A stretch of DNA of 64,000 nt, taken from Bdellovibrionales bacterium (GTDB lineage: Bacteria > Bdellovibrionota > Bdellovibrionia > Bdellovibrionales > UBA1609). The notes under the pieces are model-generated. The model ran no database searches and had not been told where the DNA came from. It saw only the letters and a program-made list of their open reading frames with translations. The position numbers and the translations under genes are program-made. The stretch spans positions 384,525 through 448,524 of the forward strand of contig CBDBIB010000001.1 in the NCBI GenBank assembly GCA_965205945.1. Reading direction: 5' to 3'. The first letter of the stretch is position 1. Each line of letters starts with the position of its first letter. Shown one piece after another: positions 28,171-43,274 of the stretch.

Positions 28171-29150
28171 ATACTTAAATCTCCATAAGAAAAAAGTCTA
28201 AACTCGTTTTCTACAGCAAACTTATACGCAAGTTTTGTGCCTTTAATACCGTAAAAAGCCATTACCAATGCTAAAAGAGAAGACCCTGGCTGATGAAAAT
28301 TTGTAAAAAGCCCTGACACCCATTTAAACTTATAACCTGGAGTTATAAAAAGCTCCGTCTCCCCAGTTTCATCACCATCATTAAACAAACAAGACTCAAC
28401 AGCTCTTAATGCTGTCGTTCCTAAAGCCCAAATTCTTTTTTTATTTTTCTTAGCACGAATAAGAGCTTCCTTTGTTTTCCCAGAAACAAAAAAACTCTCC
28501 TTATGAAGCTTTCCTTTCTTAATATTTTTCTCCTCTAAAGGTAAAAAAGTCCCTAAACCTATATCTAAACTCACCTCTTCAACAATAACTCCTCTTACTT
28601 TAAGAGCAGCTAAGTCTTTTTCTGAAAAGTGTAGACTTGCAGTAGGTGCCGCTAAAGAGTTTTCGTTCTTTTTCCAATCAAGCTGATACCAGTTTATATC
28701 GTCCTTAATCGCATGACGTGACTTTCTTAACTTTTGAATATATGGAGGAATTGCAAGTTCACCATATTGAGCAAAATATCTTAAATCTAAATCTTGATCC
28801 ACTTTAATTAATTGAGACCGATCTTTTTGCAAAAGCTCCCCTACTACCCCCCCTGGTAAATCAAGCTTATCCCCTACTTTAAATTTTGCAGATTTAAATA
28901 AAACCTCCCATTCATATTCAGATCTCTTATTTAAAAATAAAAACTCTAAATCTTTACAAAAAATACGACATGCCTTAACTCCAGAATTGTTAATAATAAT
29001 TAAATCCTCTGATTCAATACAATCAAAAGCAGCACAAAGCTCAATCTCAATTGGGGCAGCATTGTCCATGAATAAGACACGGCAAGGCTCTGTAGGTTTT
29101 AATGCTACAAGTCTTTGTGGATATGTGTATTCTAAATCTTTTATGTCCAT
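28158..29150 (-). CDS. queA: S-adenosylmethionine:tRNA ribosyltransferase-isomerase
   Basis: 'YTYPQRLVA..P', 'GELAIPPYI', 'SLAAPTASLHFS' and 'LFTNFHQPGSSLL'. Confidence 0.93.
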   Translation of the reverse strand: MDIKDLEYTYPQRLVALKPTEPCRVLFMDNAAPIEIELCAAFDCIESEDLIIINNSGVKACRIFCKDLEFLFLNKRSEYEWEVLFKSAKFKVGDKLDLPGGVVGELLQKDRSQLIKVDQDLDLRYFAQYGELAIPPYIQKLRKSRHAIKDDINWYQLDWKKNENSLAAPTASLHFSEKDLAALKVRGVIVEEVSLDIGLGTFLPLEEKNIKKGKLHKESFFVSGKTKEALIRAKKNKKRIWALGTTALRAVESCLFNDGDETGETELFITPGYKFKWVSGLFTNFHQPGSSLLALVMAFYGIKGTKLAYKFAVENEFRLFSYGDLSIWKK

Positions 29151-29476
29151 AAAACTGTCATAAACTTAAGCTGTATTGATAGCAAGAAAAGGAAGGTTTA
29201 TAGCTTTTTTTCTTGGCTCTCTTGCAGTTATTGTTAATTTTCTAATTCCATTATAATAACTTTAAGAAAATTTAGGAAGATAGAAATCTGTTTTTTCCTT
29301 TAATACTAGGAACTTAGCTTTCAGGATGAGAACTAAATAACAGTTGATAGACAGACTAGTTTAAGGCTTGGTGCAGTGAAAAATAAAAATTAAATACGGT
29401 TAATGACTTAAATATTTTTTAACATACAAGCTCTAGCCTGTTTTAATAAAAATATTACCATTATAAGATAAATTAT

Positions 29477-29525
29477 GTGCCATTACCGGAATTAGTAGAT
29501 AAACATAATTAAGGGTATTGCGTGG
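29477..29525 (+). pseudogene. decayed tRNA-Leu-like 5' fragment (copy A)
   Basis: GTGCCATTACCGGAATTAGTAGATAAAC...TTAAGGGTATTGCGTGG aligns with copy B and with the acceptor-5'/D-arm/anticodon region of the intact tRNA. No T-arm or 3' acceptor strand. Confidence 0.5.
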
Positions 29526-29667
29526 ATAAAAAACAAACTTTTCTGGTAGCAAGCTATTTCTTCAAAGTAAAGTCAAAGACTTTAAATTGTTACAAAGTTT
29601 TTTTATAACTTTATTGTAACAAGCGGGCCTACCATTTATGCTAGACCAAACATACTAAACACGTTCT

Positions 29668-29725
29668 GTGCCGGTGGTGGAATTAATAGACACGCCGGCT
29701 TTGAGGGGAGTATGCGGGGTTCCGC
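29668..29725 (+). pseudogene. truncated tRNA-Leu-like 5' fragment (copy B)
   Basis: GTGCCGG-TG-GTGGAATTAATAGACAC-G-CCGGCTTTGAGGGG...GCGGGGTTCCGC has a Leu-type D-arm (GTG/CAC stem) and a variable-arm-like hairpin. It lacks a pairing anticodon-stem 3' strand, T-arm and acceptor 3' strand. Confidence 0.6.
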
Positions 29726-29817
29726 TAAAGAGTAATGAGGTAAAGGGCTTAGAGTAAAAATTGGTATACGGAAATAACTCGATTTTGGTAACCACAGTAC
29801 CAAGGTCGGGCATTAAT

Positions 29818-29904
29818 GCGCTAGTGCTGGAATTGGTAGACAGGCTGGTTTGAGGGATCAGTGCTCGTAAGGGCGTGGAGGTTCAAGTCCTCTCTGGCGC
29901 ACCA
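29818..29904 (+). tRNA. tRNA-Leu (anticodon GAG), class II with long variable arm, CCA encoded
   Basis: Hand-folded. Acceptor GCGCTAG/CTGGCGC (one U-G pair), D-arm CTG..CAG with GGAATTGGTAGAC. Anticodon stem CTGGT/ATCAG with loop TT-GAG-GG. Variable arm TGCTCGTAAGGGCGT, T-arm GGAGG-TTCAAGT-CCTCT, then A-CCA. Confidence 0.9.
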
Positions 29905-29946
29905 CTTTAGTTCGTAAATATTTGTAATAATTAAGTATCGACATAA

Positions 29947-30010
29947 CTGTCCCCAATTTGTCCCCAGTTTTTTTTAAAATAATTGCTTTCCCCATTTAAT
30001 TCTAGCCCCA
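29947..30010. repeat. four spaced (T)GTCCCCA / CCCCA motifs downstream of the tRNA
   Basis: CTGTCCCCAA (29947-56), TTGTCCCCAG (29958-67), TTTCCCCA (29987-94) and TAGCCCCA (30003-10), in an otherwise AT-rich spacer upstream of the gene at 30096. Confidence 0.6.
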
Positions 30011-30095
30011 TCTGTTATATGAACATACCTCTTAATATATGTAGATTTAATTTAAATCATTAAATATAATAGAGGTTAAAAAGGAGAGGGTACGT

Positions 30096-30869
30096 ATGAC
30101 GTGGTTTTTTAAAATTATAATAGTACTAGCAAGTATTTTACATATTAGTGTTACTCAAGGGGCTTTTTTTTCGACAGAGGATTTTGATGTTGCCCTTGGC
30201 GTTCAGGGAAATTCGTTACTATATAAACGCGGTATTATTACTTATGAAGGTTATCAGATAGTACCTATTTACACAGTTCAACTATTTAATCCAAAACTTT
30301 TTATGGCGGGGGGAGCCCTTTATTATAAGCATGAATTAAGTAAAAATCTATTACTACGAACACGCCTTAACTTTGATTCAACTTTAGATAAGCCGTTATA
30401 TAAAACTTTAGAAGATGAATCAGCAAGACCTCGTCGAGAAAGTACAACAGAGCTAGATATTTACCTAGAGTATACGGTTATAAATGATAGCTTTTTTAGG
30501 TTCTTAATAAGCCAGGACGTAATAGCTCACAAAGGTAATTATTTTGAATTACGTGGAAGACTAGCACTTCTAGATTTATATAAAAAAAATTTAGAAAAGC
30601 CTCTTATTCAATTAGGGATTTTTTCATCCATTGGATACGGCAGTAGTCAGCACAATGATTATTTTTATGGAAAGGGTGCTAATAAAGCAGGTTTTAATAA
30701 CCTTGAATATGGTATATCAATAACAAGTCCAAAAGTAATAGAAAAGTTTTGGCCAACATTTAAAATCACACGCTTTCATGTATTAGGAAGCAATAACAAA
30801 GAGGGCTCTCATATTCAAGAAACTAAAGGTTGGAGCATTGAGGCTCTTATGGCTTTTCAAGTTTGGTAA
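30096..30869 (+). CDS. MipA/OmpV-family outer-membrane protein
   Basis: Signal peptide. 'FDVALGVQG...YEGYQIVPIYTVQ' and 'HNDYFYGKGANKAGFNNLEY' parallel E. coli MipA ('FSLGAGVG...VYPVPVINYEG', 'NEYYYGVS'). Strong RBS AAGGAGAGGG upstream. Confidence 0.62.
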   Translation: MTWFFKIIIVLASILHISVTQGAFFSTEDFDVALGVQGNSLLYKRGIITYEGYQIVPIYTVQLFNPKLFMAGGALYYKHELSKNLLLRTRLNFDSTLDKPLYKTLEDESARPRRESTTELDIYLEYTVINDSFFRFLISQDVIAHKGNYFELRGRLALLDLYKKNLEKPLIQLGIFSSIGYGSSQHNDYFYGKGANKAGFNNLEYGISITSPKVIEKFWPTFKITRFHVLGSNNKEGSHIQETKGWSIEALMAFQVW

Positions 30870-32622: not shown

Positions 32623-32740
32623 AAAGCATTTTATTTTAAACTTGACCTTGGTTTTTTGTATGATTGTATATATTCTTTAATATATTTTCTTATATACACA
32701 GAAAGTAATGGTGGTAATTAATAAAAAAAGGAGATTTAAA

Positions 32741-33193
32741 ATGAAAACACTAATAGTTATATGTATATCTTTTATGCTAACAACAGCTTTTGCCAAAAAT
32801 ACTAATTATAATATGGATAACGGTTTATTTATAAACGGATATGACCCTGTAGCCTACCTTACAAGCAATAAGGCTATAAAGGGAAAACAAAATATACAAT
32901 ATTTGTACAATGGAGTAAAAATTCAGTTTAGCTCAGAAGAGAATAAGAAAAAATTTATAAAAGACCCTGAAAAAATGCTCCCAGCTTATAAGGGATGGTG
33001 CGCTTACGCTATGTCTGAAAAAGCTAAACTAGTTGAAGTTGACCCTAAGTCCTTTAAAGTTATCAAGGGTAAAACATATCTTTTTTATGATAGCGTCTGG
33101 GCCGATACTTTAAAAAAGTGGAATAAAAAAAATAACGACAATATACAAGTTAAACGAGCTGATATGAATTGGAAAAAGATTTATTTAAAATAA
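32741..33193 (+). CDS. periplasmic YHS-domain protein; start revised to ATG 32741
   Basis: AGGAGA RBS before 32741; signal peptide 'MKTLIVICISFMLTTAFA'. 'DPVAYL...KG...Y.GVKIQFSSEENKKKFIKDPEKMLPAYKGWCAYAM...DP..F.VIKGKTYLF' is the YHS-type pattern. Confidence 0.7.
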   Translation: MKTLIVICISFMLTTAFAKNTNYNMDNGLFINGYDPVAYLTSNKAIKGKQNIQYLYNGVKIQFSSEENKKKFIKDPEKMLPAYKGWCAYAMSEKAKLVEVDPKSFKVIKGKTYLFYDSVWADTLKKWNKKNNDNIQVKRADMNWKKIYLK

Positions 33194-33203
33194 GGCATTT
33201 AAA

Positions 33204-35153
33204 ATGACGCTAACCTGGCATAAAGTTGCTAAAGTTAACGAACTTCTAGAAGGGCGTGTAAAAACAGTAACCATTGGAACTAAAAATATTGTTCTAACAA
33301 AATACAAAGGTATTTATGGCGCCTTAGATAATGCTTGCCCTCATCAGGGTGGACCTTTAGGAGAGGGATCTATTGAAAATGGTTTTTTACGTTGCCCCTG
33401 GCATGGTTGGGATTTTTGTCCTCACTCAGGTAAACCTCCAGGCGGCTACGACGATGGTGTGGCCGTTTACCCTGTAGAAGAAAGAACTGATGGAATTTAT
33501 ATTCAGATAAAATCTATAAAAGACAATAAAACTACAGTAAGTGATAAAATGGTGGAGACCATGATTAATTGGGGCGTAGACACTGTTTTTGGAATGGTTG
33601 GACATTCTAACTTAGGTTTTGCTGAAGCACTTAGAAAACAAGAAGAGCTTGGGAAGCTACGTTTTTTTGGAATTCGTCACGAAGGAGCAGCAGCTTTTGC
33701 CTGCTCTGGTTATGCTAAAACAATAGGAACCCCTGCAGCTTGCTTTACTATTGCAGGACCTGGAGCAACCAATTTATTAACAGGTTTATGGGATGCAAAA
33801 GTTGATAGAGCGCCTGTTTTAGCCCTAACAGGGCAGGTGAATACTCAAGTACTTGGACCGGGAGCTTTTCAAGAAATTGATTTAACATCTGCATTTAATG
33901 CTGTAACTAAATTTAGTCAAACTGTATTAAATGAATCTGATCAAGTCGAGTTAATGAGCTTAGCTCTTAAAAATGCTATTGTTCATAGAGATGTTGCTCA
34001 TTTAATTTTACCTGATGAAGTTCAAATATTACCTGCAACAAAGACAATGAAGGCCTTAAGTTGTGTAGGTCGATTAGCTGATATGAAAATAAGACCACCA
34101 CTTCAAGCTTTAGATACTGCATTACAAAAAATCTCTAAAAGCAAAAGACCTGTGATTATTGTTGGGTATGGTGCTAAAAGATCTATGGTTGATATTATTA
34201 AATATGCTCAAGTATTAAACGCTCCTATTATAACAACCTTTAAAGGTAAGGGACAAATTTCAGACGCTCACCCTTTAGCCTGTGGTGTTCTTGGACGTAG
34301 TGGAACACCCGTTGCTAGCTGGTTTATGAACGAATCTGATTTATTAATTGTTTTTGGATCGTCATTTTCTAATCATACAGGAATTACCCCTAAAAAACCC
34401 ATTATTCAAATTGATTTTGATCCAATTCAAATTGGAAAGTTTCATAAAGTAGATATACCCATCTTAGGAGATGTTGGAGTTGTTGCAAACTTACTGCTTG
34501 AAAAAATAAATATTAAAGCAGCAAATATACGAATAAATATTAAAGATGAAGTAGCAAAACGTTGGTCTATTTGGAAAAAAGAAAAATTATCTCGCACAAA
34601 AGATGATTTTAATAAGGGGATTGGATCTGCAGCAATATTTTCTATACTTAAAGATGTTATCCCCAATGATGCTATTATTCCTGTAGACGTAGGTAACAAT
34701 ACTTATTCATTTGGACGGTATTTTGAGTGTAAAGGTCAAAGCATTTTAATGTCTGGTTACTTAGGGTCCATTGGATTTTCTTTCCCTGCTGCTATGGGCG
34801 CTTGGGCTGCAGTTAAAGGACAAAGAAAAATTGTTTCTATTAGCGGCGATGGTGGCTTTGGGCAATATATGAATGAGTTTACTACTGCTGTTAAATATGA
34901 CATGGATATCACTCATATTTTATTAAACAATTCAGAGCTCGGAAAAATTTCAAAAGAACAACTTTCCGGAGAATGGCCAGTTTGGCAAACCTCTTTACAC
35001 AATCCAAATTTTGCAAAATATGCTCAAAATTGTGGTGGCCTAGGAATTCAAGTTAATAAAATTACAGAACTTAAGAGTGCTCTAAACAAAGCTATTGCTC
35101 ATAAAAAAGGACCCTCTCTTGTTGAAATTATCACAGATGCAAAACTCATATAG
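33204..35153 (+). CDS. fusion protein: N-terminal Rieske [2Fe-2S] domain + ThDP-dependent pyruvate-oxidase/acetolactate-synthase-like enzyme
   Basis: Rieske ligands 'CPHQGGPL...x16...CPWHGW' (nt 33336-33404). ThDP N-domain 'GVDTVFGMVGHSN...GIRHEGAAAFA..GYAK..G...C.TIAGPGATNL..GL.DA..DR.PVLALTGQ'. ThDP-binding 'ISGDGGFGQYMNE......ILLNN'. Confidence 0.85.
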   Translation: MTLTWHKVAKVNELLEGRVKTVTIGTKNIVLTKYKGIYGALDNACPHQGGPLGEGSIENGFLRCPWHGWDFCPHSGKPPGGYDDGVAVYPVEERTDGIYIQIKSIKDNKTTVSDKMVETMINWGVDTVFGMVGHSNLGFAEALRKQEELGKLRFFGIRHEGAAAFACSGYAKTIGTPAACFTIAGPGATNLLTGLWDAKVDRAPVLALTGQVNTQVLGPGAFQEIDLTSAFNAVTKFSQTVLNESDQVELMSLALKNAIVHRDVAHLILPDEVQILPATKTMKALSCVGRLADMKIRPPLQALDTALQKISKSKRPVIIVGYGAKRSMVDIIKYAQVLNAPIITTFKGKGQISDAHPLACGVLGRSGTPVASWFMNESDLLIVFGSSFSNHTGITPKKPIIQIDFDPIQIGKFHKVDIPILGDVGVVANLLLEKINIKAANIRINIKDEVAKRWSIWKKEKLSRTKDDFNKGIGSAAIFSILKDVIPNDAIIPVDVGNNTYSFGRYFECKGQSILMSGYLGSIGFSFPAAMGAWAAVKGQRKIVSISGDGGFGQYMNEFTTAVKYDMDITHILLNNSELGKISKEQLSGEWPVWQTSLHNPNFAKYAQNCGGLGIQVNKITELKSALNKAIAHKKGPSLVEIITDAKLI

Positions 35154-35161
35154 GAGATTCT

Positions 35162-35368
35162 ATGTCAAAAACTATAGCCGAAAATATAATTTTATTAGCT
35201 AATTTATATATTCTAATAGGTTTTATTTATTCAGTATATTTTTTTAAAATACGCATTCTAAAAACTGATTCAGTTTTTACTAAAACATGTTGGAGTGTAA
35301 AAATTTTAATGGTGCCTGCAACAATAATGCTATGGCCACTTATTGCTATTTGTGGAGAAAAAAAATGA
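35162..35368 (+). CDS. small membrane protein (2 predicted TM)
   Basis: 68-aa ORF starting 8 nt after the previous stop; ATGA overlap with the next ORF. Confidence 0.5.
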   Translation: MSKTIAENIILLANLYILIGFIYSVYFFKIRILKTDSVFTKTCWSVKILMVPATIMLWPLIAICGEKK

Positions 35369-35511
35369 TTAAAAAACAACGAAGAGCTCATTTATATATT
35401 TGGCTATTTTTACTTCCAGCATTAATTATTTTATTTTACTTTGTTCAAACTAACCGACAGCTAAATATCAACAAAAACTCTAATAACAAAGGACACCACC
35501 ATGAGCGTTGA
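35365..35511 (+). CDS. small single-TM protein (start ATG 35365)
   Basis: 'MIKKQRRAHLYIWLFLLPALIILFYF...' The ATG overlaps the stop of the previous ORF, and the 3' end overlaps the next ORF by 11 nt. Confidence 0.45.
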   Translation: MIKKQRRAHLYIWLFLLPALIILFYFVQTNRQLNINKNSNNKGHHHER

Positions 35512-36553
35512 TTACGTAAGAGTACAGTGGACAGAGCATAAAAAGTGGTATGATCTAATCTGTGTAGGTTTTTTCTTTTTGTTATTCTTATGTTTTCTAA
35601 TTACAAGTTTAATTTCTTTTGATAAACCGAGTCAGTTTAGTTTTATGACCCTTCTTATACGTGGATTTGGGTTATGTGCTATTACGTTTATACATATTAT
35701 ATTGGCAATTGGTCCTTTAGCACGAATAGATAAAAGGTTTTTACCGTTACTTTATAATAGACGTCATTTAGGTGTGATGACATTTTTTATAGCATTTTTT
35801 CATGTGTTTTTAGTTATGTTATTTTATCATGGTTTTGGAGTAATGAACCCATTAATGTCTCTTTTAATTGGAAATACAGAATACAAGTCTTTATCTGCTT
35901 TTCCCTTTGAATTATTTGGGTTAGGTGCTTTTTTTATTTTATTTATGCTAGCTTCTACGAGTCATGATTTCTGGCAGAAATTTTTTGGTAAAATCTTCTG
36001 GAAATCAATGCATATGTCTATTTACTTAGCCTATTTTTTAATAATAACTCATGTTCTCCTTGGAGTTTATCAATCCGAACAAAGCCTTATTTATACCTTT
36101 CTTATAGTTTTAGGGTTTTTAAGTATAAGTGGATTACACATAGCTGCGGGAATAAAAGCTTATAAACTTGATGCTATAAATGTGTCAAAATTAAACTGGG
36201 TAAAAGTTGCAAAAATTAGTGAGTTTATTCAAGATAGAGCTAAGGTTATTACTACAAAGAATGGAGAGAGTGTTGCCATATTTAAACATAAAAAAGGTTT
36301 TAGTGCTGTAACAAATGTTTGCGCTCATCAAGGTGGCCCTCTTAGTGAAGGTAAAATTATTGATGGTTGTATTACTTGTCCATGGCATGGATGGCAATAT
36401 AAGGTTGAGGATGGTCAGAGCCCTCCGCCTTTTGAAGAAAAAATATGTACATATGAAACTAAAATAACTGATGGTTATGTCTATGTCTTTGCTCAAGCAA
36501 AACCCCCAGGAACCTTTATAACACCCTTAAAAAGTGGAGAATTAAGTGAATAA
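35501..36553 (+). CDS. fusion protein: ferric-reductase/YedZ-type 6-TM (haem b-type) domain + C-terminal Rieske [2Fe-2S] domain
   Basis: Six hydrophobic helices with conserved-looking His ('FIHIILA', 'RRHLGVMTFFIAFFHVF', 'TSHDFW', 'MHMSIYLAYFLIITHVLLG'). C-terminal 'CAHQGGPL...CPWHGWQY' (nt 36320-36388). The positively charged N-terminus suggests N-in, so the Rieske domain is cytoplasmic. Confidence 0.72.
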   Translation: MSVDYVRVQWTEHKKWYDLICVGFFFLLFLCFLITSLISFDKPSQFSFMTLLIRGFGLCAITFIHIILAIGPLARIDKRFLPLLYNRRHLGVMTFFIAFFHVFLVMLFYHGFGVMNPLMSLLIGNTEYKSLSAFPFELFGLGAFFILFMLASTSHDFWQKFFGKIFWKSMHMSIYLAYFLIITHVLLGVYQSEQSLIYTFLIVLGFLSISGLHIAAGIKAYKLDAINVSKLNWVKVAKISEFIQDRAKVITTKNGESVAIFKHKKGFSAVTNVCAHQGGPLSEGKIIDGCITCPWHGWQYKVEDGQSPPPFEEKICTYETKITDGYVYVFAQAKPPGTFITPLKSGELSE

Positions 36554-37307
36554 AGATGAATTTTATGTTGGTTATTTTCCAATGCCGAAAACTTATAAAA
36601 AGTTTTTATTTGTTATTTTAACTATAATAGCTATTTTCTTTACTATATTAGTTTTTATTGTTGCTAAAGAGCAAGTTCAACCTAAAAATGGAGTTGGTTG
36701 GAATCCTAACGGGGATGGAGCTATTATTGTTAAAGGTGTAATATCAAAATTCCCCTATGATTTACTACGCTTTAAAGAGTCAAAAAAAAGTGCTGTTCAA
36801 ACCGCGATATTAACATCTATGACAAAAACATCTATTCAAAATCGTATAAAAGGAAAATATGATAAAGCCTTAGATTTAAAAGGAGTTATGATCCGTCAAA
36901 ATGGCCGATTTGTTTTCTCAGTATTAGACGGTAAAGAAAGCATTAAGATTTCAGATTTTAACCCTTTAGATTTTAGCCCTTTAAAAACTAAGATGATAGG
37001 TATTGTTCATCTACAAGGAGAAATTATTGATCCAAAGTGTTATCTAGGAGCAATGAAGCCAGGAGGGGGCAAGGTTCATAAATCTTGCGCTGTTCTATGC
37101 ATCCGTGGTGGAATTCCTCCTATGTTTGTAACCAAGAATGAACTCTTAAATGAAACTTATTATTTACTAACTGATAAAAATGGTGGTCCAATAGTAGAAG
37201 ATATTATTGCTTATGTTGGTGATCCAGTTTCAATTACAGGGTTTGCTGAAAAACATGATGATATGTTATTTCTTCGTTTAGATGTGGAATCAATAAAAAG
37301 ATTATAA
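36546..37307 (+). CDS. single-pass membrane protein of unknown function
   Basis: GTG start overlapping the previous gene by 8 nt; TM 'FLFVILTIIAIFFTILVFIV'. Cys/His-containing segment 'DPKCYLGAMKPGGGKVHKSCAVLCIRGGIPPMF'. Confidence 0.5.
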   Translation: MNKDEFYVGYFPMPKTYKKFLFVILTIIAIFFTILVFIVAKEQVQPKNGVGWNPNGDGAIIVKGVISKFPYDLLRFKESKKSAVQTAILTSMTKTSIQNRIKGKYDKALDLKGVMIRQNGRFVFSVLDGKESIKISDFNPLDFSPLKTKMIGIVHLQGEIIDPKCYLGAMKPGGGKVHKSCAVLCIRGGIPPMFVTKNELLNETYYLLTDKNGGPIVEDIIAYVGDPVSITGFAEKHDDMLFLRLDVESIKRL

Positions 37308-37319
37308 AGGATACCCATT

Positions 37320-38933
37320 GTGAAAAAAATTAAAGTGTTTGAGTTAAATGAATTAGTTGATCGTAGGCCAAATTATAAATTAATATCCGGTGTTGATTTA
37401 GTTATCATTCGCTATGATGATCAGGTTTCAGTAATGTATGGGCGCTGTTTACATCGTGGTGCGCTAATGTCTGATGGGCATATTGATGGAAATAACCTTA
37501 TTTGTGGAGTTCATGGTTGGGACTACCGTTTAGACACAGGCATAAGTGAGTATAATAATAAAGAGGCTCTGAAAAAATTTAACTCTTGGATTGACAATGG
37601 TGTAGTTTTTCTTGATGCCGATGAGGTAAGCGAGTGGGCAAAAAATCACCCACAGCCATTTAATCGTGAAGAGTACCTTGGCTTATATCAAGATGCTCAT
37701 ATAACAGAAGAAGAACCTGAAAATCATTTAATTCAACACCTTGCTAAACACGGTCTAAAAAAATCAGGGCCCCATGGCCCAACGGGTGCTATGGGGGTTG
37801 AAAAATCAAAACTTCCCCATTGGAATGAAATACAAATTACTACAGCTCAATTAAAACGTTTTCCATTATTAGATAATGAGCCTGTTAAAAGTAACGTTGT
37901 CATTGGCCCTAAAGCTCGTAAACCTTTACACCTTAAAATCCCATTATTTGTTTCAGATATGAGTTTTGGTGCCTTATCAGAAGAAGCTAAAATAGCTCTT
38001 GCAAAAGGCGCTGAGCTAGCCGGCACTGGGATTTGTAGTGGAGAAGGGGGTATGTTACCAGAAGAGCAGGCTTGTAACTCAAGATATTTTTATGAGTTAG
38101 CATCCGGACGCTTTGGTTATGACATTAAAAAAGTTAAGCTTTGCCAAGCTTTTCACTTTAAAGGCGGACAAGGCGCAAAAACTGGAACAGGAGGGCATTT
38201 ACCAGGAAGTAAAGTTAGTAAAAAAATTGCTTCTGTTCGAGGTTTACAAGAGGGACAAGCCGCAATATCACCAAGTCGATTTTCTGATTGGGAAAGCCTT
38301 GATGATATAAAAAAATTTGCAGATAAAGTGCGTCAGGCTACAGGGGGAATACCTATAGGGTATAAACTCTCGGCTCAAAGAGTAGAAGAAGATATTGCCG
38401 CAGCTCTTTATATTGGAGTTGACTATGTGATTCTTGATGGGCGAGGTGGCGGTACAGGAGCTGCTCCACTAATTTTTAGAGATCATATTTCTGTTCCAAC
38501 CATACCAGCTTTAGCTAGAGCCCGACGCTATTTAGATGCTCAAAAAGCGTCTCATGTAAGTTTAATAATTACAGGGGGACTACGTGTAGCACCAGATTTT
38601 GTTAAAGCCCTAGCTCTAGGGGCTGATGCTATTGCACTGTCTAATTCAGCACTCCAAGCAATTGGTTGTTTAGGCATGAGGGCTTGCCACACAAACAATT
38701 GCCCAGTGGGTATTGCAACTCAAAAAAAAGATTTACGACGCCGTTTAGTTATTGATGAATCTGCAAAACGATTACATCGTTTTTTTAGCGCCTCAACAGA
38801 ATTAATGCAAGTAATGGCTCGTGCTTGTGGACATAATCATTTATCAAAATTTAACTTAGAAGACTTAGTAACGCTTAACCCCTCTATGTCAAAGCTTAGT
38901 GGTGTTCATTTTGCAGGAGATTCAATTTTTTAA
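37320..38933 (+). CDS. fusion protein: N-terminal Rieske [2Fe-2S] domain + glutamate-synthase-type FMN (GltB domain 2-like) oxidoreductase
   Basis: 'CLHRGALM...x16...CGVHGWDY' (nt 37446-37514). Then 'PLFVSDMSFGALS.EAK.ALA.GA...G....SGEGG', 'KGGQGAKTGTGGHLPG.KV', 'ILDGRGGGTGAAP' and 'ITGGLR...D..KALALGAD' typical of the Glu_synthase FMN domain. GTG start. Confidence 0.85.
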   Translation: MKKIKVFELNELVDRRPNYKLISGVDLVIIRYDDQVSVMYGRCLHRGALMSDGHIDGNNLICGVHGWDYRLDTGISEYNNKEALKKFNSWIDNGVVFLDADEVSEWAKNHPQPFNREEYLGLYQDAHITEEEPENHLIQHLAKHGLKKSGPHGPTGAMGVEKSKLPHWNEIQITTAQLKRFPLLDNEPVKSNVVIGPKARKPLHLKIPLFVSDMSFGALSEEAKIALAKGAELAGTGICSGEGGMLPEEQACNSRYFYELASGRFGYDIKKVKLCQAFHFKGGQGAKTGTGGHLPGSKVSKKIASVRGLQEGQAAISPSRFSDWESLDDIKKFADKVRQATGGIPIGYKLSAQRVEEDIAAALYIGVDYVILDGRGGGTGAAPLIFRDHISVPTIPALARARRYLDAQKASHVSLIITGGLRVAPDFVKALALGADAIALSNSALQAIGCLGMRACHTNNCPVGIATQKKDLRRRLVIDESAKRLHRFFSASTELMQVMARACGHNHLSKFNLEDLVTLNPSMSKLSGVHFAGDSIF

Positions 38934-39143: not shown

Positions 39144-39749
39144 TTAAATCTTAAAGCTCCTCATATCTTTTAGTCTAGAATTAATATCATTTTCATTTAT
39201 GGCCCTATCTCCCCCACGCATAGTTTCTGGTTTTGTTAGTGATCCAAACTCAAACTCGTATTTTTCTTTGGGCTCAATAATTGATTTAATATATTTAGAA
39301 AAATACTGCCTTTTGTTAATAAAGAAACAACTAATTAAATCCCCCTTTTTTAATTCAAATTCGTTATAATCCTCTTCAACTTCACATATATAATAGGTTT
39401 GAAAAATACTAAATTCTTTAATAAGAGGACTTGGAGTTATTCCTTTAATTTTAACTCTGATTTCTTTATTATCAGAGCCAGAAACACTTAATCCGATGTT
39501 GTCACAAGTTTCAAATCTAAATACAAAATGCCAATATTTTTTATATTCTGGTTCAATGCTTCTCATCATGCGTAAACCTGCAACATGCATCGATGAATAC
39601 ACTTTAAAAATTAAATTGTTAAAAGTTTCAAGTGTCTTAAACGAATTTTCAACATATTTCTTAAATAATTTTTGATCTTTTTGCTGCTGATAAAAACTAT
39701 AAATTGCGAAACAAAAACTCAAAATTCCGATAATACCAAATATTTCCAT
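39144..39749 (-). CDS. hypothetical protein with N-terminal TM anchor
   Basis: 201-aa ORF, 'MEIFGIIGILSFCFAIYSFY' anchor; no recognisable domain. It is the only minus-strand gene at the right edge of the accessory block. Confidence 0.45.
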   Translation of the reverse strand: MEIFGIIGILSFCFAIYSFYQQQKDQKLFKKYVENSFKTLETFNNLIFKVYSSMHVAGLRMMRSIEPEYKKYWHFVFRFETCDNIGLSVSGSDNKEIRVKIKGITPSPLIKEFSIFQTYYICEVEEDYNEFELKKGDLISCFFINKRQYFSKYIKSIIEPKEKYEFEFGSLTKPETMRGGDRAINENDINSRLKDMRSFKI

Positions 39750-40197
39750 AAACTCTTCCTTTTAAATTCCCGAAAACTTTAACTTTTGCAAAGTTGTTAG
39801 TCCTAAAAGTCGTCATTCCCCATGAACATCCAAGTGTATAACCTCTCCCCTTCCTACGGCTAGCCATCTTATGGTCACTTGGGAAAACCTTTTAGACTCT
39901 GTAGCACCGTTATTCTTATCAAAAGCCTCTCCATAATCTAATTAACAGTGATTATTGATATATACTACCTAAAGAAGAAAATAATTTTTATGGCTAGCGA
40001 CTATACCATAAATAAAAAGCCTGCTGCCAAACTCAATTAAAATTCTTACGAAGAAATTTTGTGATTAAAAATAAGATGCTTAATTTATAGACTTTTTATG
40101 AATTAATTTTTATTCCTTAATAAAATAAAGTTAAATCCGGGGTATCTAAACTCGGCTTTTATTGCTCCTAACGAGACTAACACGTAGTCTAATATTC

Positions 40198-41601
40198 ATG
40201 GATTATAGAATAGAAAAAGACAGTATGGGTGAAGTTAAGGTTGAATCTTGTAAACTTTGGGGGGCTCAAACTCAACGCTCTTTAAAAAATTTTAAAATCG
40301 GTTTTGATAAATTTCCAAGAGAGATGATTCGCGCCTTTGGAATTTTAAAAAAATCCTGTGCAAGAGCAAACATGACCTTAGGCTTATTACCTAAAGAAAA
40401 GACAACAGCAATTTTAAAAGCCGCTGATGAAGTGATTAAAGGAAAATTTGATTTAGAATTTCCCTTAGTTGTTTGGCAAACAGGCAGTGGAACACAGTCT
40501 AATATGAATTCTAATGAGGTTATTGCAAACCGTGCAGCTCAAATCATGGGTTTTACTTTAGACGTTAATAGTAATGAGAAAAAAGTTCATCCCAATGACG
40601 ATATTAATAAAGGACAATCTTCAAACGATGTTTTTCCAACAACTATGCATATTGCAACATCAGAAATGATTGCAAAGAAGATGATTCCAGCTTTAAAAAA
40701 TTTAAAAAAATCTTTAGAAAAAAAACAAGATGAATTCTCTGATATTTTTAAAATTGGAAGAACTCATTTTATGGATGCAACACCACTAACCCTAGGCCAA
40801 GAGTTTTCAGGGTATGTTAGGCAAATTGAGCTTTCTATTAAGCGTATTGAGTTTGCACTAACAGGCACTTTAGAACTTGCAATCGGCGGAACAGCTGTTG
40901 GAACAGGTTTAAATACTCATGAAACTTTTGACCAAACAGTTTCAAAATATATAGCTGAAGAAACAGGTTTAGCTTTCATGTCTGGGAAAAATAAGTTTGA
41001 AGGGCTTGCTGCCCATGACGCTATGGTCTTTTTAAGTGGATCCTTAAAAACTGTAGCTGTAAGTTTAATGAAAATTGGAAATGATATTCGTATGCTTGGC
41101 AGCGGTCCAAGGTGTGGAATTGGAGAGTTAAACCTTCCTGCAAATGAGCCGGGAAGTTCTATTATGCCTGGAAAGGTTAACCCTACGCAGGTAGAAGCTC
41201 TTACAATGGTTTGCGCTCAAGTTATGGGAAATGATGCAGGTGTTGCTATTGCAGGGTCTATGGGGCATTTTGAATTAAATGTTTTTAAGCCAATGATTGT
41301 TCATAATGTTTTACACTCAATCCGTCTTTTATCAGAGGCTTGTAATAGTTTTAGAGTAAATTGTTTAGACGGGATTATAGCGAATAAAGAAAAATGTGCT
41401 AACCATTTAAACAATTCTTTAATGCTAGTAACAGCATTAAACCCACACATTGGTTATGATGCATCAGCAAAAATTGCAAAGAAAGCCTTTAAGGAAGGAA
41501 CTACATTAAAAAAAGCTGCAATCTCTTTAGGCCTTTTAACAGAGACTCAATTTAAAGACTGGGTTAAACCTAGTAATATGATAAGGCCTTTAAAAACATG
41601 A
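40198..41601 (+). CDS. fumC: class II fumarate hydratase; start revised to ATG 40198
   Basis: '[29 protein letters not shown]' aligns with the E. coli FumC N-terminus; signature '[15 protein letters not shown]'. Confidence 0.95.
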
Positions 41602-42497: not shown

Positions 42498-43274
42498 ATG
42501 TTGCTTTTAGTTTTATCTGGTTTAGGGGTTGGAGTGGTTTCAGCTCTCTTAGGTTTAGGTGGAGGAGTGTTACTCGTTCCATTTTTACCCAAATTAACTG
42601 ATTGGAGTAGTCACCAAGTTGTAGCAGTGACGCTTTTAATTATCTTAGGAAATTCCTTTGCTAATATGATCTGGTATAATAAAAGAAATATGGTAAATTG
42701 GAGTGTTTTAATTTTTTGGGGCCCTTTTGCAGCTATGGGAGCGTTTACAGGCTCCTATTATGCTTTAAAGCTTGAAGGCCAGAAACTTCGAATGGCTTTG
42801 CTTGTTATTGTAGGCTTAATGATCATTCGATTTAGTCTAGATTTTTTTAAAAACCCAAGAAGTAAAAAGCTCTTTGTTTCTTCAGATTGGAATCCTTTTA
42901 AAGGAATCTTTGGTTTTTTTGTGGGTAGTTTTTCTGGATTTTGCGGCGTTGGAACAGGGCTTATTTCAAATATTATTTTTATGAATCGAAGATGGGTTTT
43001 AAACAATAAAGTTGCTCCAACAGGAAATGGAGTGATGCTTTTTGTTAGCCTTGCTTCAATGATAAGTTTTTTAATTTTTGGAAAAAGTCAAAATATTGAA
43101 CTTTCTTTTTTTCTAGAAAATGGAAAAGAAATTTTAGTTCTAATGGGATCTGTTTTTATAAGTTCATTTTACTTAAGGCCATTTAACCCCCTTATCTCAG
43201 ATAATTTAAGATTTCTTTGCCTAATCATAACACTTTTTTCAGTATTTGGCTGTGTTTTATATGAAATGTTTTAA
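42498..43274 (+). CDS. TauE/SafE (TSUP) family anion exporter-like membrane protein
   Basis: About 8 TM segments, 'LLGLGGGVLLVPFL' and an internal repeat 'GFCGVGTGLI'. Confidence 0.7.
   Translation: MLLLVLSGLGVGVVSALLGLGGGVLLVPFLPKLTDWSSHQVVAVTLLIILGNSFANMIWYNKRNMVNWSVLIFWGPFAAMGAFTGSYYALKLEGQKLRMALLVIVGLMIIRFSLDFFKNPRSKKLFVSSDWNPFKGIFGFFVGSFSGFCGVGTGLISNIIFMNRRWVLNNKVAPTGNGVMLFVSLASMISFLIFGKSQNIELSFFLENGKEILVLMGSVFISSFYLRPFNPLISDNLRFLCLIITLFSVFGCVLYEMF

Follow-up and report, generated by a model that had tools for sequence, protein, structure and literature searches.

What would three different proteins of a single operon, each carrying a Rieske domain, have in common? The question is raised by a Bdellovibrio-like bacterium (Bdellovibrionales, contig CBDBIB010000001.1), of which we analysed a stretch of 64,000 nucleotides (nt), hereafter the window. 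Between 32.7 and 38.9 kb, seven consecutive open reading frames (ORFs) lie on the + strand, and three of them encode Rieske fusions: with a thiamine diphosphate enzyme (Rieske-ThDP), with a ferric-reductase membrane domain (FRD-Rieske) and with the flavin mononucleotide (FMN) domain of glutamate synthase (Rieske-GltS). The original prediction, made from the letters of this DNA, was that the Rieske domains link two cytoplasmic oxidoreductases to a transmembrane cytochrome and a periplasmic acceptor, and this is still the best available reading, partly supported by the results given below. The gene set is real, widespread and apparently uncharacterised: no functional study of it, of its protein P253 or of the associated family DUF5996 was found in the literature outside subscription journals. 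The set comprises one new protein family (P253) and two orphan enzyme families, the proposed FRD-based electron exporter itself being of a known kind. The seven genes, with the evidence used to assign them, are as follows.

32741..33193, + strand: YHS protein with a signal peptide (NF041384 match); a longer ORF starts at 32708
33204..35153, + strand: Rieske-ThDP (Pfam Rieske and TPP_enzyme_N/M/C)
35162..35368, + strand: mini1, a two-helix membrane protein of 68 amino acids (aa) with the conserved motif R.D...F(R/K).L..P....LWP
35365..35511, + strand: mini2, a single-helix membrane protein of 48 aa (ORF list and junction reading)
35501..36553, + strand: FRD-Rieske, a six-helix ferric-reductase domain with a C-terminal Rieske domain (Pfam, NCBIfam)
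36546..37307, + strand: P253, a single-pass protein of 253 aa (AlphaFold2 (AF2) model, homologue alignment)
37320..38933, + strand: Rieske-GltS, with an FMN/3Fe-4S domain (PF01645)

Read from the sequence, the junctions are tight throughout. The YHS stop (33193) is separated from the ThDP ATG (33204) by 10 nt, the ThDP gene from mini1 by 8 nt and P253 from the GltS fusion by 12 nt; mini1 and mini2 overlap by the ATGA at 35365-35368, mini2 and FRD-Rieske by 11 nt, and FRD-Rieske and P253 by 8 nt. Six of the seven genes have a GGAG/AGGA-like Shine-Dalgarno sequence ahead of their start, the site of the ThDP gene being weak (AAGG). For the YHS gene, the likely start is 32741, which falls within the ORF from 32708 and has a GGAG 8 nt upstream.

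The shared element is well defined. Pfam Rieske (PF00355) was found in the three proteins (E = 2.5e-17, 2.3e-16 and 3.3e-12), with the ligands C45/H47/C64/H67 in the ThDP fusion (nt 33336-33404), C274/H276/C293/H296 in the FRD fusion (nt 36320-36388) and C43/H45/C62/H65 in the GltS fusion (nt 37446-37514). All three sets are invariant or at least 97% conserved among homologues, and the ThDP-linked and FRD-linked domains share 35% identity. The three ligand sets, the tight junctions and the domain architectures (ThDP, ferric-reductase, GltS FMN and YHS, all recovered with Pfam or NCBIfam profiles) had been read correctly in the original prediction, and the conservation of the Cys/His ligands in orthologues, which it had proposed as a check, is now established. 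In the AF2 model, the FRD-linked Rieske part matches the ferredoxins T4moC and CarAc (foldseek TM-score 0.8-0.9, normalised to the target), and the centre is, as modelled, of the ferredoxin type and not of the bc1 type. Both the fold and the CxH-x16-CxxH ligand spacing are those of the Rieske ferredoxins of multicomponent oxygenases (T4moC, CarAc, BphA3), which are one-electron shuttles from a flavoprotein to a terminal component. Unlike them, the domains studied here are fused to the presumed donors and to the membrane acceptor, and there is no oxygenase component. A Rieske non-haem oxygenase was rejected since the catalytic mononuclear-iron domain is absent.

The membrane protein is a member of the FRD superfamily. 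It matches Ferric_reduct (PF01794) over residues 57-181 with 36.4 bits (Pfam cut-off 28), contains six hydrophobic segments and carries candidate haem-ligand histidines, about 12-13 residues apart within each pair, in transmembrane helix (TM) 3 (H89, H101) and TM5 (H171, H184), which are invariant in 21-25 sequences. His pairs in TM3 and TM5 are the di-haem signature of the superfamily (PMC3591440). The AF2 model has a predicted local distance difference test (pLDDT) score of 83. In 21 family members, the successive loops contain on average 2.7/0.4/4.4/0.5/2.5/0.6/3.4 Lys+Arg; together with the six segments, these counts predict an N-in/C-in topology and therefore a cytoplasmic Rieske domain, as had been supposed. 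In dual Sec/Tat proteins, the TM helices are odd in number and the final one is preceded by a twin-arginine motif (PMC5449189); here there are six helices, the loop before TM6 averages 0.6 Lys+Arg and the sole conserved Arg pair (R87-R88) precedes TM3. A bc1/b6f-type exported Rieske protein and a dual Sec/Tat protein were both rejected, because the helix count is even, no RR precedes the final helix and the modelled fold is of the ferredoxin type.

Two known systems invite comparison. In E. coli, MsrQ (YedZ) works with MsrP and the flavin reductase Fre, and it shares with FRD-Rieske a membrane domain of the di-haem b, FRD type. In the MsrQ system, a separate cytoplasmic flavoprotein provides the electrons, which go to a partner in the periplasm whose gene is adjacent (PMC5676040; PMC5449189). 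FRD-Rieske differs from MsrQ by its C-terminal Rieske fusion and by a score far below the cut-off (NCBIfam NF003831, residues 49-202, 44.9 bits against 130), which places it outside that family. Its partner is the Cys3His beta-barrel protein P253 and not the molybdoenzyme MsrP, and its presumed donors are the Rieske-tagged ThDP and GltS-domain enzymes; no Mo-enzyme domain was found by profile search of the operon ORFs or among the recurrent neighbours. With the NOX/FRE/STEAP ferric-reductase superfamily, FRD-Rieske shares the six helices, the four His in TM3/TM5 and, presumably, electron transfer from the cytoplasm to the outside, but it has no fused FAD/NADPH (flavin adenine dinucleotide/reduced nicotinamide adenine dinucleotide phosphate) dehydrogenase domain. 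An FRD + Rieske fusion has been catalogued as bacterial architecture 'M4' in the 2013 survey of Zhang et al. without partner genes or function, P253, the mini-protein partners and the Rieske-tagged enzymes being absent from it (PMC3591440).

P253 is a new protein family, with 755 homologues and relatives in 413 species genomes. No Pfam family and no solved protein was recovered for it by sequence, only faint DUF5818 matches, and a PDB fold search with its model returned only weak OB-fold matches. The protein begins with a cytoplasmic motif D-x-F-Y-V-G-Y-x-P-x-P, followed by one TM helix and a predicted periplasmic domain. The 12 residues before the helix contain 2.4 Lys+Arg versus 0.65 after it, an asymmetry that predicts an N-in (C-out) orientation. 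In the AF2 model (pLDDT 88), the periplasmic domain comprises two OB-like beta-barrels and a helix-loop-helix bearing C165, M170, H178, C181 and C185, in the motif K-C-Y-x-G-A-M-K-P-G...H-K-x-C-A-x-L-C. Each of these five residues is at least 97% conserved in 121 sequences, so that the Cys/His segment originally noticed in this single-pass protein is a genuine family feature. No consistent twin-arginine motif was found in P253, and an Fe-S cluster was rejected for this periplasmic protein without a Tat signal.

The genomic distribution of P253 was examined with one genome per species, and the 80 best loci of the 413 genomes were analysed with 10-kb flanks. The genomes belong mostly to Phycisphaerae and other Planctomycetota, with Bdellovibrionales and some Alphaproteobacteria. 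In all 70 loci with enough upstream DNA (Planctomycetota, Bdellovibrionales, Alphaproteobacteria), FRD-Rieske lies directly upstream of P253, its FRD and Rieske parts being separate ORFs in two of them, and the overlap between the two genes is usually 8 nt, as in the window. The mini1 family is present in 70 of the 80 loci and in the alphaproteobacterial clusters, and look-ups based on FRD-Rieske give the matching order (small TM protein, FRD-Rieske, protein of about 260 aa). We therefore name as module A the invariant unit composed of mini1, FRD-Rieske and P253. Small ORFs also occur at the position of mini2 (31 aa in locus L001, 53 aa in L167 and 67 aa in L170), with weak sequence conservation. 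In alphaproteobacteria, an additional ORF of 80-89 aa directly follows the P253 homologue (L084 11774-12043; L167 13909-14151) and has no counterpart in the window.

On the periplasmic side, the YHS protein is a candidate acceptor. It scores 112 bits, above the cut-off of 70, for the NCBIfam family 'YHS domain-containing (seleno)protein' and has a single conserved Cys, C98 (numbering from the 32708 ORF), in GGWCAxAM. This Cys, in a family that has selenoprotein members (PMC1976440, PMC9312934), would point to a redox-active residue. In 23 of the 80 loci, a YHS protein is encoded within 10 kb of P253, and in 26 of the 80 an exported YHS-family or thioredoxin-like protein; in 19 of these loci, a signal peptide, a thioredoxin-like domain (mostly CPxC) and a YHS domain are fused. 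Planctomycete operons add DoxX-like, DinB_2 and TANGO2-like genes. In Phycisphaerales, genes located directly upstream of mini1/FRD-Rieske/P253 encode an ECF sigma factor, an anti-sigma factor of the zf-HC2 (ZAS) type and a SpoIIE phosphatase, which suggests stress-responsive regulation:

L002, 8076-9597: ECF/zf-HC2/SpoIIE genes
L169, 4323-5539 and 10502-11170: ECF/zf-HC2/SpoIIE genes

The predicted N-in/C-out orientation of P253, the exported YHS and thioredoxin-YHS neighbours and these regulatory genes are the reasons for which a periplasmic output is favoured. The idea of a periplasmic acceptor thus gains support: P253 has turned out to be an obligate partner with a periplasmic domain, and YHS proteins recur beside the FRD-Rieske/P253 pair. 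As to the purpose, the neighbouring genes and the homology with MsrQ favour delivery of electrons to an exported thiol or selenol protein, for envelope redox maintenance or stress defence.

A different output would be metal reduction or copper handling, in which the Cys3-His-Met site of P253 binds copper (or iron), the FRD haems reduce Cu(II)/Fe(III) in the manner of FRE/STEAP and the YHS protein is a metal chaperone. Indeed, the invariant Cys/His/Met of P253 include a CxxxC+His pattern that resembles Sco-type copper sites, YHS domains occur in copper ATPases and metal-trafficking proteins, and P253, having no Tat motif, must acquire its cofactor in the periplasm. The FRD superfamily also includes metalloreductases (PMC3591440). 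However, the recurrent neighbours include no gene for copper or iron transport, for a multicopper oxidase or for a siderophore, and are instead related to thiols and stress (thioredoxin-like CPxC, DoxX, DinB_2, ECF/ZAS), and the possible selenocysteine of the YHS family points to redox chemistry (PMC1976440). We assign a low probability to metal handling, and retain the exported thiol or selenol protein as the preferred acceptor. The most extended planctomycete context was seen in L064 (8414-17041, + strand), with mini1, FRD-Rieske, P253, an exported thioredoxin-like(CPLC)-YHS protein, DoxX_2, DinB_2, a TANGO2-like protein, a DedA-ATP-grasp protein, a Rieske-FMN_red fusion and a protein of 154 aa without assignment; L031, L033 and L079 have a similar context, a larger conserved set with a thiol/stress flavour.

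On the cytoplasmic side, two enzymes carry the Rieske domain at their N-terminus. In Rieske-ThDP, this domain (residues 1-105) precedes the ThDP N, M and C domains (TPP_enzyme_N/M/C, E = 1e-30 to 1e-33). The best solved relative is E. coli PoxB (3EYA, 224 bits). Like PoxB (pyruvate:ubiquinone oxidoreductase) and the Lactobacillus pyruvate oxidase, the protein has the three ThDP domains, the GDG...NN ThDP motif and the catalytic Glu. It differs from PoxB by the added Rieske domain and by scores below the NCBIfam equivalog cut-offs (PRK08611, the best, 408 against 742 bits; PoxB PRK09124, 295 against 792). A further difference is that the alignment stops at PoxB residue 527 of 572 (query residue 644 of 649), so that the C-terminal membrane-binding (alpha) peptide, through which PoxB contacts lipid, is by this comparison missing; the enzyme would then need another route to the membrane. 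Canonical acetolactate synthase was rejected, its scores being far below the equivalog cut-offs. Among 83 Rieske-ThDP sequences, 220 of the 649 positions are at least 97% identical, including C45/H47/C64/H67, H159-E160 and GDG548-550. Full-length proteins form only three clusters at 50% identity among 1.8 billion representatives, and the next relatives, 41-49% identical, have no Rieske domain. In the metagenome scan, the full-length fusion was found on at least 579 contigs.

Rieske-GltS is similarly conserved, with a mean column identity of 80% across phyla and about 70% identity across Alphaproteobacteria, Nitrospinota, Lentisphaeria, Zetaproteobacteria and Bdellovibrionota. Its match to Glu_synthase (PF01645, 309 bits) spans only residues ~184-505, aligned to residues ~854-1151 of the GltS alpha subunit; there is no amidotransferase, central or GXGXG domain. 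Invariant residues are C43/H45/C62/H65, C450/C456/C461 and QGAK287...R307. With GltB and the alpha subunit of ferredoxin-dependent GltS (Fd-GltS), it shares the FMN/3Fe-4S domain with the C-x5-C-x4-C motif and the QGAK...LPG...R active-site stretch. Unlike them, it consists of this single domain, has no GltD or ferredoxin partner, carries a Rieske domain in place of the external ferredoxin and reads GTGGH where GltS has GEGGQ. A canonical glutamate synthase was rejected, as three of the four alpha-subunit domains are missing and the score is far below the equivalog cut-off (NF008730, 153 against 1047; NCBIfam). Rieske-GltS also occurs alone (L085). In a metagenome-assembled genome of Mariprofundaceae, it is followed by a Fer4_19 + zf-CDGSH iron-sulfur protein (L168 9698-10339), the other partners not being there; this protein may represent yet another alternative redox partner.

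The two soluble fusions form a pair of their own, module B, which is extremely conserved and is distributed separately from module A. Among 15 well-flanked Rieske-ThDP loci (at least 5 kb on either side), Rieske-GltS adjoins Rieske-ThDP in 11. Module B usually has a DUF5996 gene between the two fusions and often a Na+/H+ exchanger gene upstream. DUF5996, absent from the window, was located at the following positions, between or after the two fusions:

L100, 9109-9960: DUF5996 protein, about 285 aa, WPHHFD motif
L105, 457-1323: DUF5996 protein, same description
L086, 11663-12514: DUF5996 protein, same description

The loci containing module B comprise 11 with module A, 45 with DUF5996 and, out of 56 that are not phylogenetically independent, none with both; this mutual exclusion is suggestive and fits alternative third partners of module B. 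Conversely, in the vicinity of module A, Rieske-GltS was found in 6 of the 80 loci and Rieske-ThDP in 2, and five planctomycete module A loci contain another fusion, of Rieske with an NADPH-FMN-reductase domain. The original view of a single unit of three Rieske fusions must thus be amended: the three are joined in the window, but the conserved unit is module A, the presumed donor enzymes can be exchanged for one another, and the soluble fusions mostly occur without the membrane module.

The complete set is nevertheless found elsewhere, in genomes of at least two phyla, which answers the question of co-location raised in the original prediction. The order in the window (YHS, ThDP, mini1, mini2, FRD-Rieske, P253, GltS) is that of L004. 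The Bdellovibrionales L006/L088 have the full set with the ThDP gene on the opposite strand. Roseovarius rhodophyticola (L084) has GltS, mini1, FRD-Rieske, P253, an 89-aa ORF and ThDP, and Roseibium sediminis (L167) has GltS, ThDP, a 77-aa ORF, a 53-aa ORF, FRD-Rieske, P253 and an 80-aa ORF. The combination of A and B also occurs on two metagenome contigs (L125, L158). We conclude that the two modules are probably functionally linked, because the full set recurs with a shuffled order in distant lineages, because module A and DUF5996 exclude each other beside module B, because the enzyme varies (ThDP/FAD type, FMN/3Fe-4S type, FMN reductase) with a constant Rieske tag and membrane core, and because the PoxB-like enzyme appears to be without the membrane anchor of PoxB.

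We therefore propose, tentatively and with a confidence just short of even, that the operon encodes a membrane redox complex with plug-in electron donors, in which electrons pass from Rieske-tagged flavoenzymes to a Rieske centre, two b haems, P253 and the YHS (seleno)protein. The cofactor ligands, topology, gene linkage and conservation are those reported above, whereas we infer how the carriers follow one another, in which direction electrons flow, which substrates are oxidised and what accepts the electrons. The ThDP enzyme would oxidatively decarboxylate a 2-oxo acid, and the GltS-domain enzyme would oxidise glutamate or a related amino dicarboxylate. The flavin electrons (via the 3Fe-4S cluster in the GltS-domain enzyme) would reach the N-terminal Rieske centre of each enzyme, then, by a putative relay between Rieske domains, that of the membrane protein, the inner haem b and the outer haem b. 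From there they would pass to the Cys3His site that P253 exposes on the periplasmic side. The final acceptor would be an exported protein, in all likelihood the YHS (seleno)protein, whose gene heads the operon. In planctomycete versions, the Rieske-FMN-reductase would replace the two enzymes. Such a system would resemble MsrQ with Fre, or a split NADPH oxidase: reducing power would be exported to the envelope, the Rieske domains acting as a common adaptor.

Several points weigh against this scheme. To our knowledge, direct electron transfer from Rieske to Rieske has no established precedent. The potential of the glutamate/2-oxoglutarate couple is no better than roughly equal to that of a low-potential Rieske centre. 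P253, without a twin-arginine motif, cannot carry a cytoplasmically assembled Fe-S cluster. The substrates of both soluble enzymes are suggested by family resemblance only, and so is the binding of FAD by the ThDP enzyme, the nearest relatives of which (PoxB, POX, ALS) bind it. Finally, a Rieske-tagged enzyme lies within 10 kb of module A in only about 11 of the 80 loci, and FRD-Rieske and P253 lie near Rieske-ThDP in only 3 of the 15 well-flanked loci, the membrane module being absent in 12.

These last counts also speak for two independent systems gathered in one operon. Rieske-ThDP and Rieske-GltS would then be a closed cytoplasmic couple, in which electrons from 2-oxo acid decarboxylation pass from Rieske to Rieske and drive the amination of 2-oxoglutarate (an ammonia-dependent, 2-oxoacid-driven glutamate synthase), and FRD-Rieske/P253 would act on its own as an envelope reductase, its electrons coming from quinol or other donors. 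Besides the adjacency of the soluble fusions, such a separation agrees with the 70 FRD-Rieske loci that have no module B within 10 kb, with the normally reductive direction of GltS and the fully conserved 3Fe-4S/FMN site of Rieske-GltS, and with the occurrence of the latter alone or beside the Fer4_19/CDGSH protein. Yet the membrane genes of the window stand between those of the two enzymes, with overlaps or gaps of 8-12 nt, the combination of A and B recurs in at least three lineages with differing gene orders, and the absence of loci with both DUF5996 and module A suggests that module B needs a third partner, which module A can be. We judge two separate systems unlikely.

A further alternative is a reversed flow, in which the FRD haems would draw on the quinol pool or on a periplasmic donor and pass the electrons through the Rieske domain to the cytoplasm, where they drive glutamate synthesis by Rieske-GltS. 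Reduction is the physiological direction of GltS, and MsrQ is thought to accept quinol electrons. Nevertheless, the oxidative decarboxylation of PoxB-type enzymes is effectively irreversible, so that Rieske-ThDP can only donate; the planctomycete partner, of the NAD(P)H-FMN reductase type, is likewise a donor; and quinol, at about +100 mV, is ill suited to reduce a ferredoxin-type Rieske centre. Reversed flow is, in our opinion, very improbable, and the export of electrons by the plug-in complex is preferred.

A bolder form of the plug-in complex would make the Rieske domain a universal plug: at least three unrelated flavoenzymes (PoxB-like ThDP/FAD, GltS FMN/3Fe-4S and NAD(P)H-FMN reductase) would dock on one di-haem/Rieske conduit, which would export the electrons of 2-oxo acids and glutamate via P253 to the YHS (seleno)protein. 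In this complete form, we hold the proposal to be possible but rather doubtful. If true, it would mean that Planctomycetota, Bdellovibrionota and marine Alphaproteobacteria possess an envelope-reducing or respiratory branch that has so far escaped notice. Known routes of reducing power to the Gram-negative periplasm are few (DsbD-type thiol relays and MsrQ), and the export of electrons by the present system would add a haem/Rieske route with central-metabolism enzymes as donors, and not NAD(P)H or thioredoxin. It would also give a role to two highly conserved orphan enzymes, Rieske-GltS and Rieske-ThDP; both are plentiful in marine metagenomes, and their annotation goes no further than 'glutamate synthase-related' or 'ThDP-binding'. 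The cultured hosts Roseovarius rhodophyticola and Roseibium sediminis make the system experimentally tractable.

Among the surroundings of the operon, one gene deserves mention for its recurrence near P253:

31018..32622, + strand: fusion of a DedA/VTT membrane domain and an ATP-grasp ligase (profile matches)

In 35 of the 80 loci, a homologue is found no more than 10 kb from P253, some homologues having an extra alpha/beta-hydrolase domain (L020), and the fusion might have a role in making or moving a small peptide or thiol. In the window, it is separated from the operon by a gap of 118 nt with a promoter-like site at 32635-32664, and is probably a separate transcription unit; in the promoter/terminator scan, promoter-like sites were fewer than in shuffled sequences. 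Further upstream, a MipA-like outer-membrane protein (30096-30869, + strand, weak Pfam match) is kept beside the cluster in the Bdellovibrionales L004 and L005. On the other side, a 201-aa ORF on the - strand (39144-39749), with a sub-threshold LANC_like match and no conserved neighbours, marks the end of the operon, and is followed by fumarase C (40162-41601) and a TauE/SafE exporter (42498-43274). The cumulative GC skew of the window reaches its minimum near 30 kb (region ~29000-30500), where the gene orientation flips, queA, tgt and secD being on the - strand before 29150 and the genes from 30096 on the + strand; the pattern may reflect a switch in skew linked to replication, or no more than a gene-strand bias.

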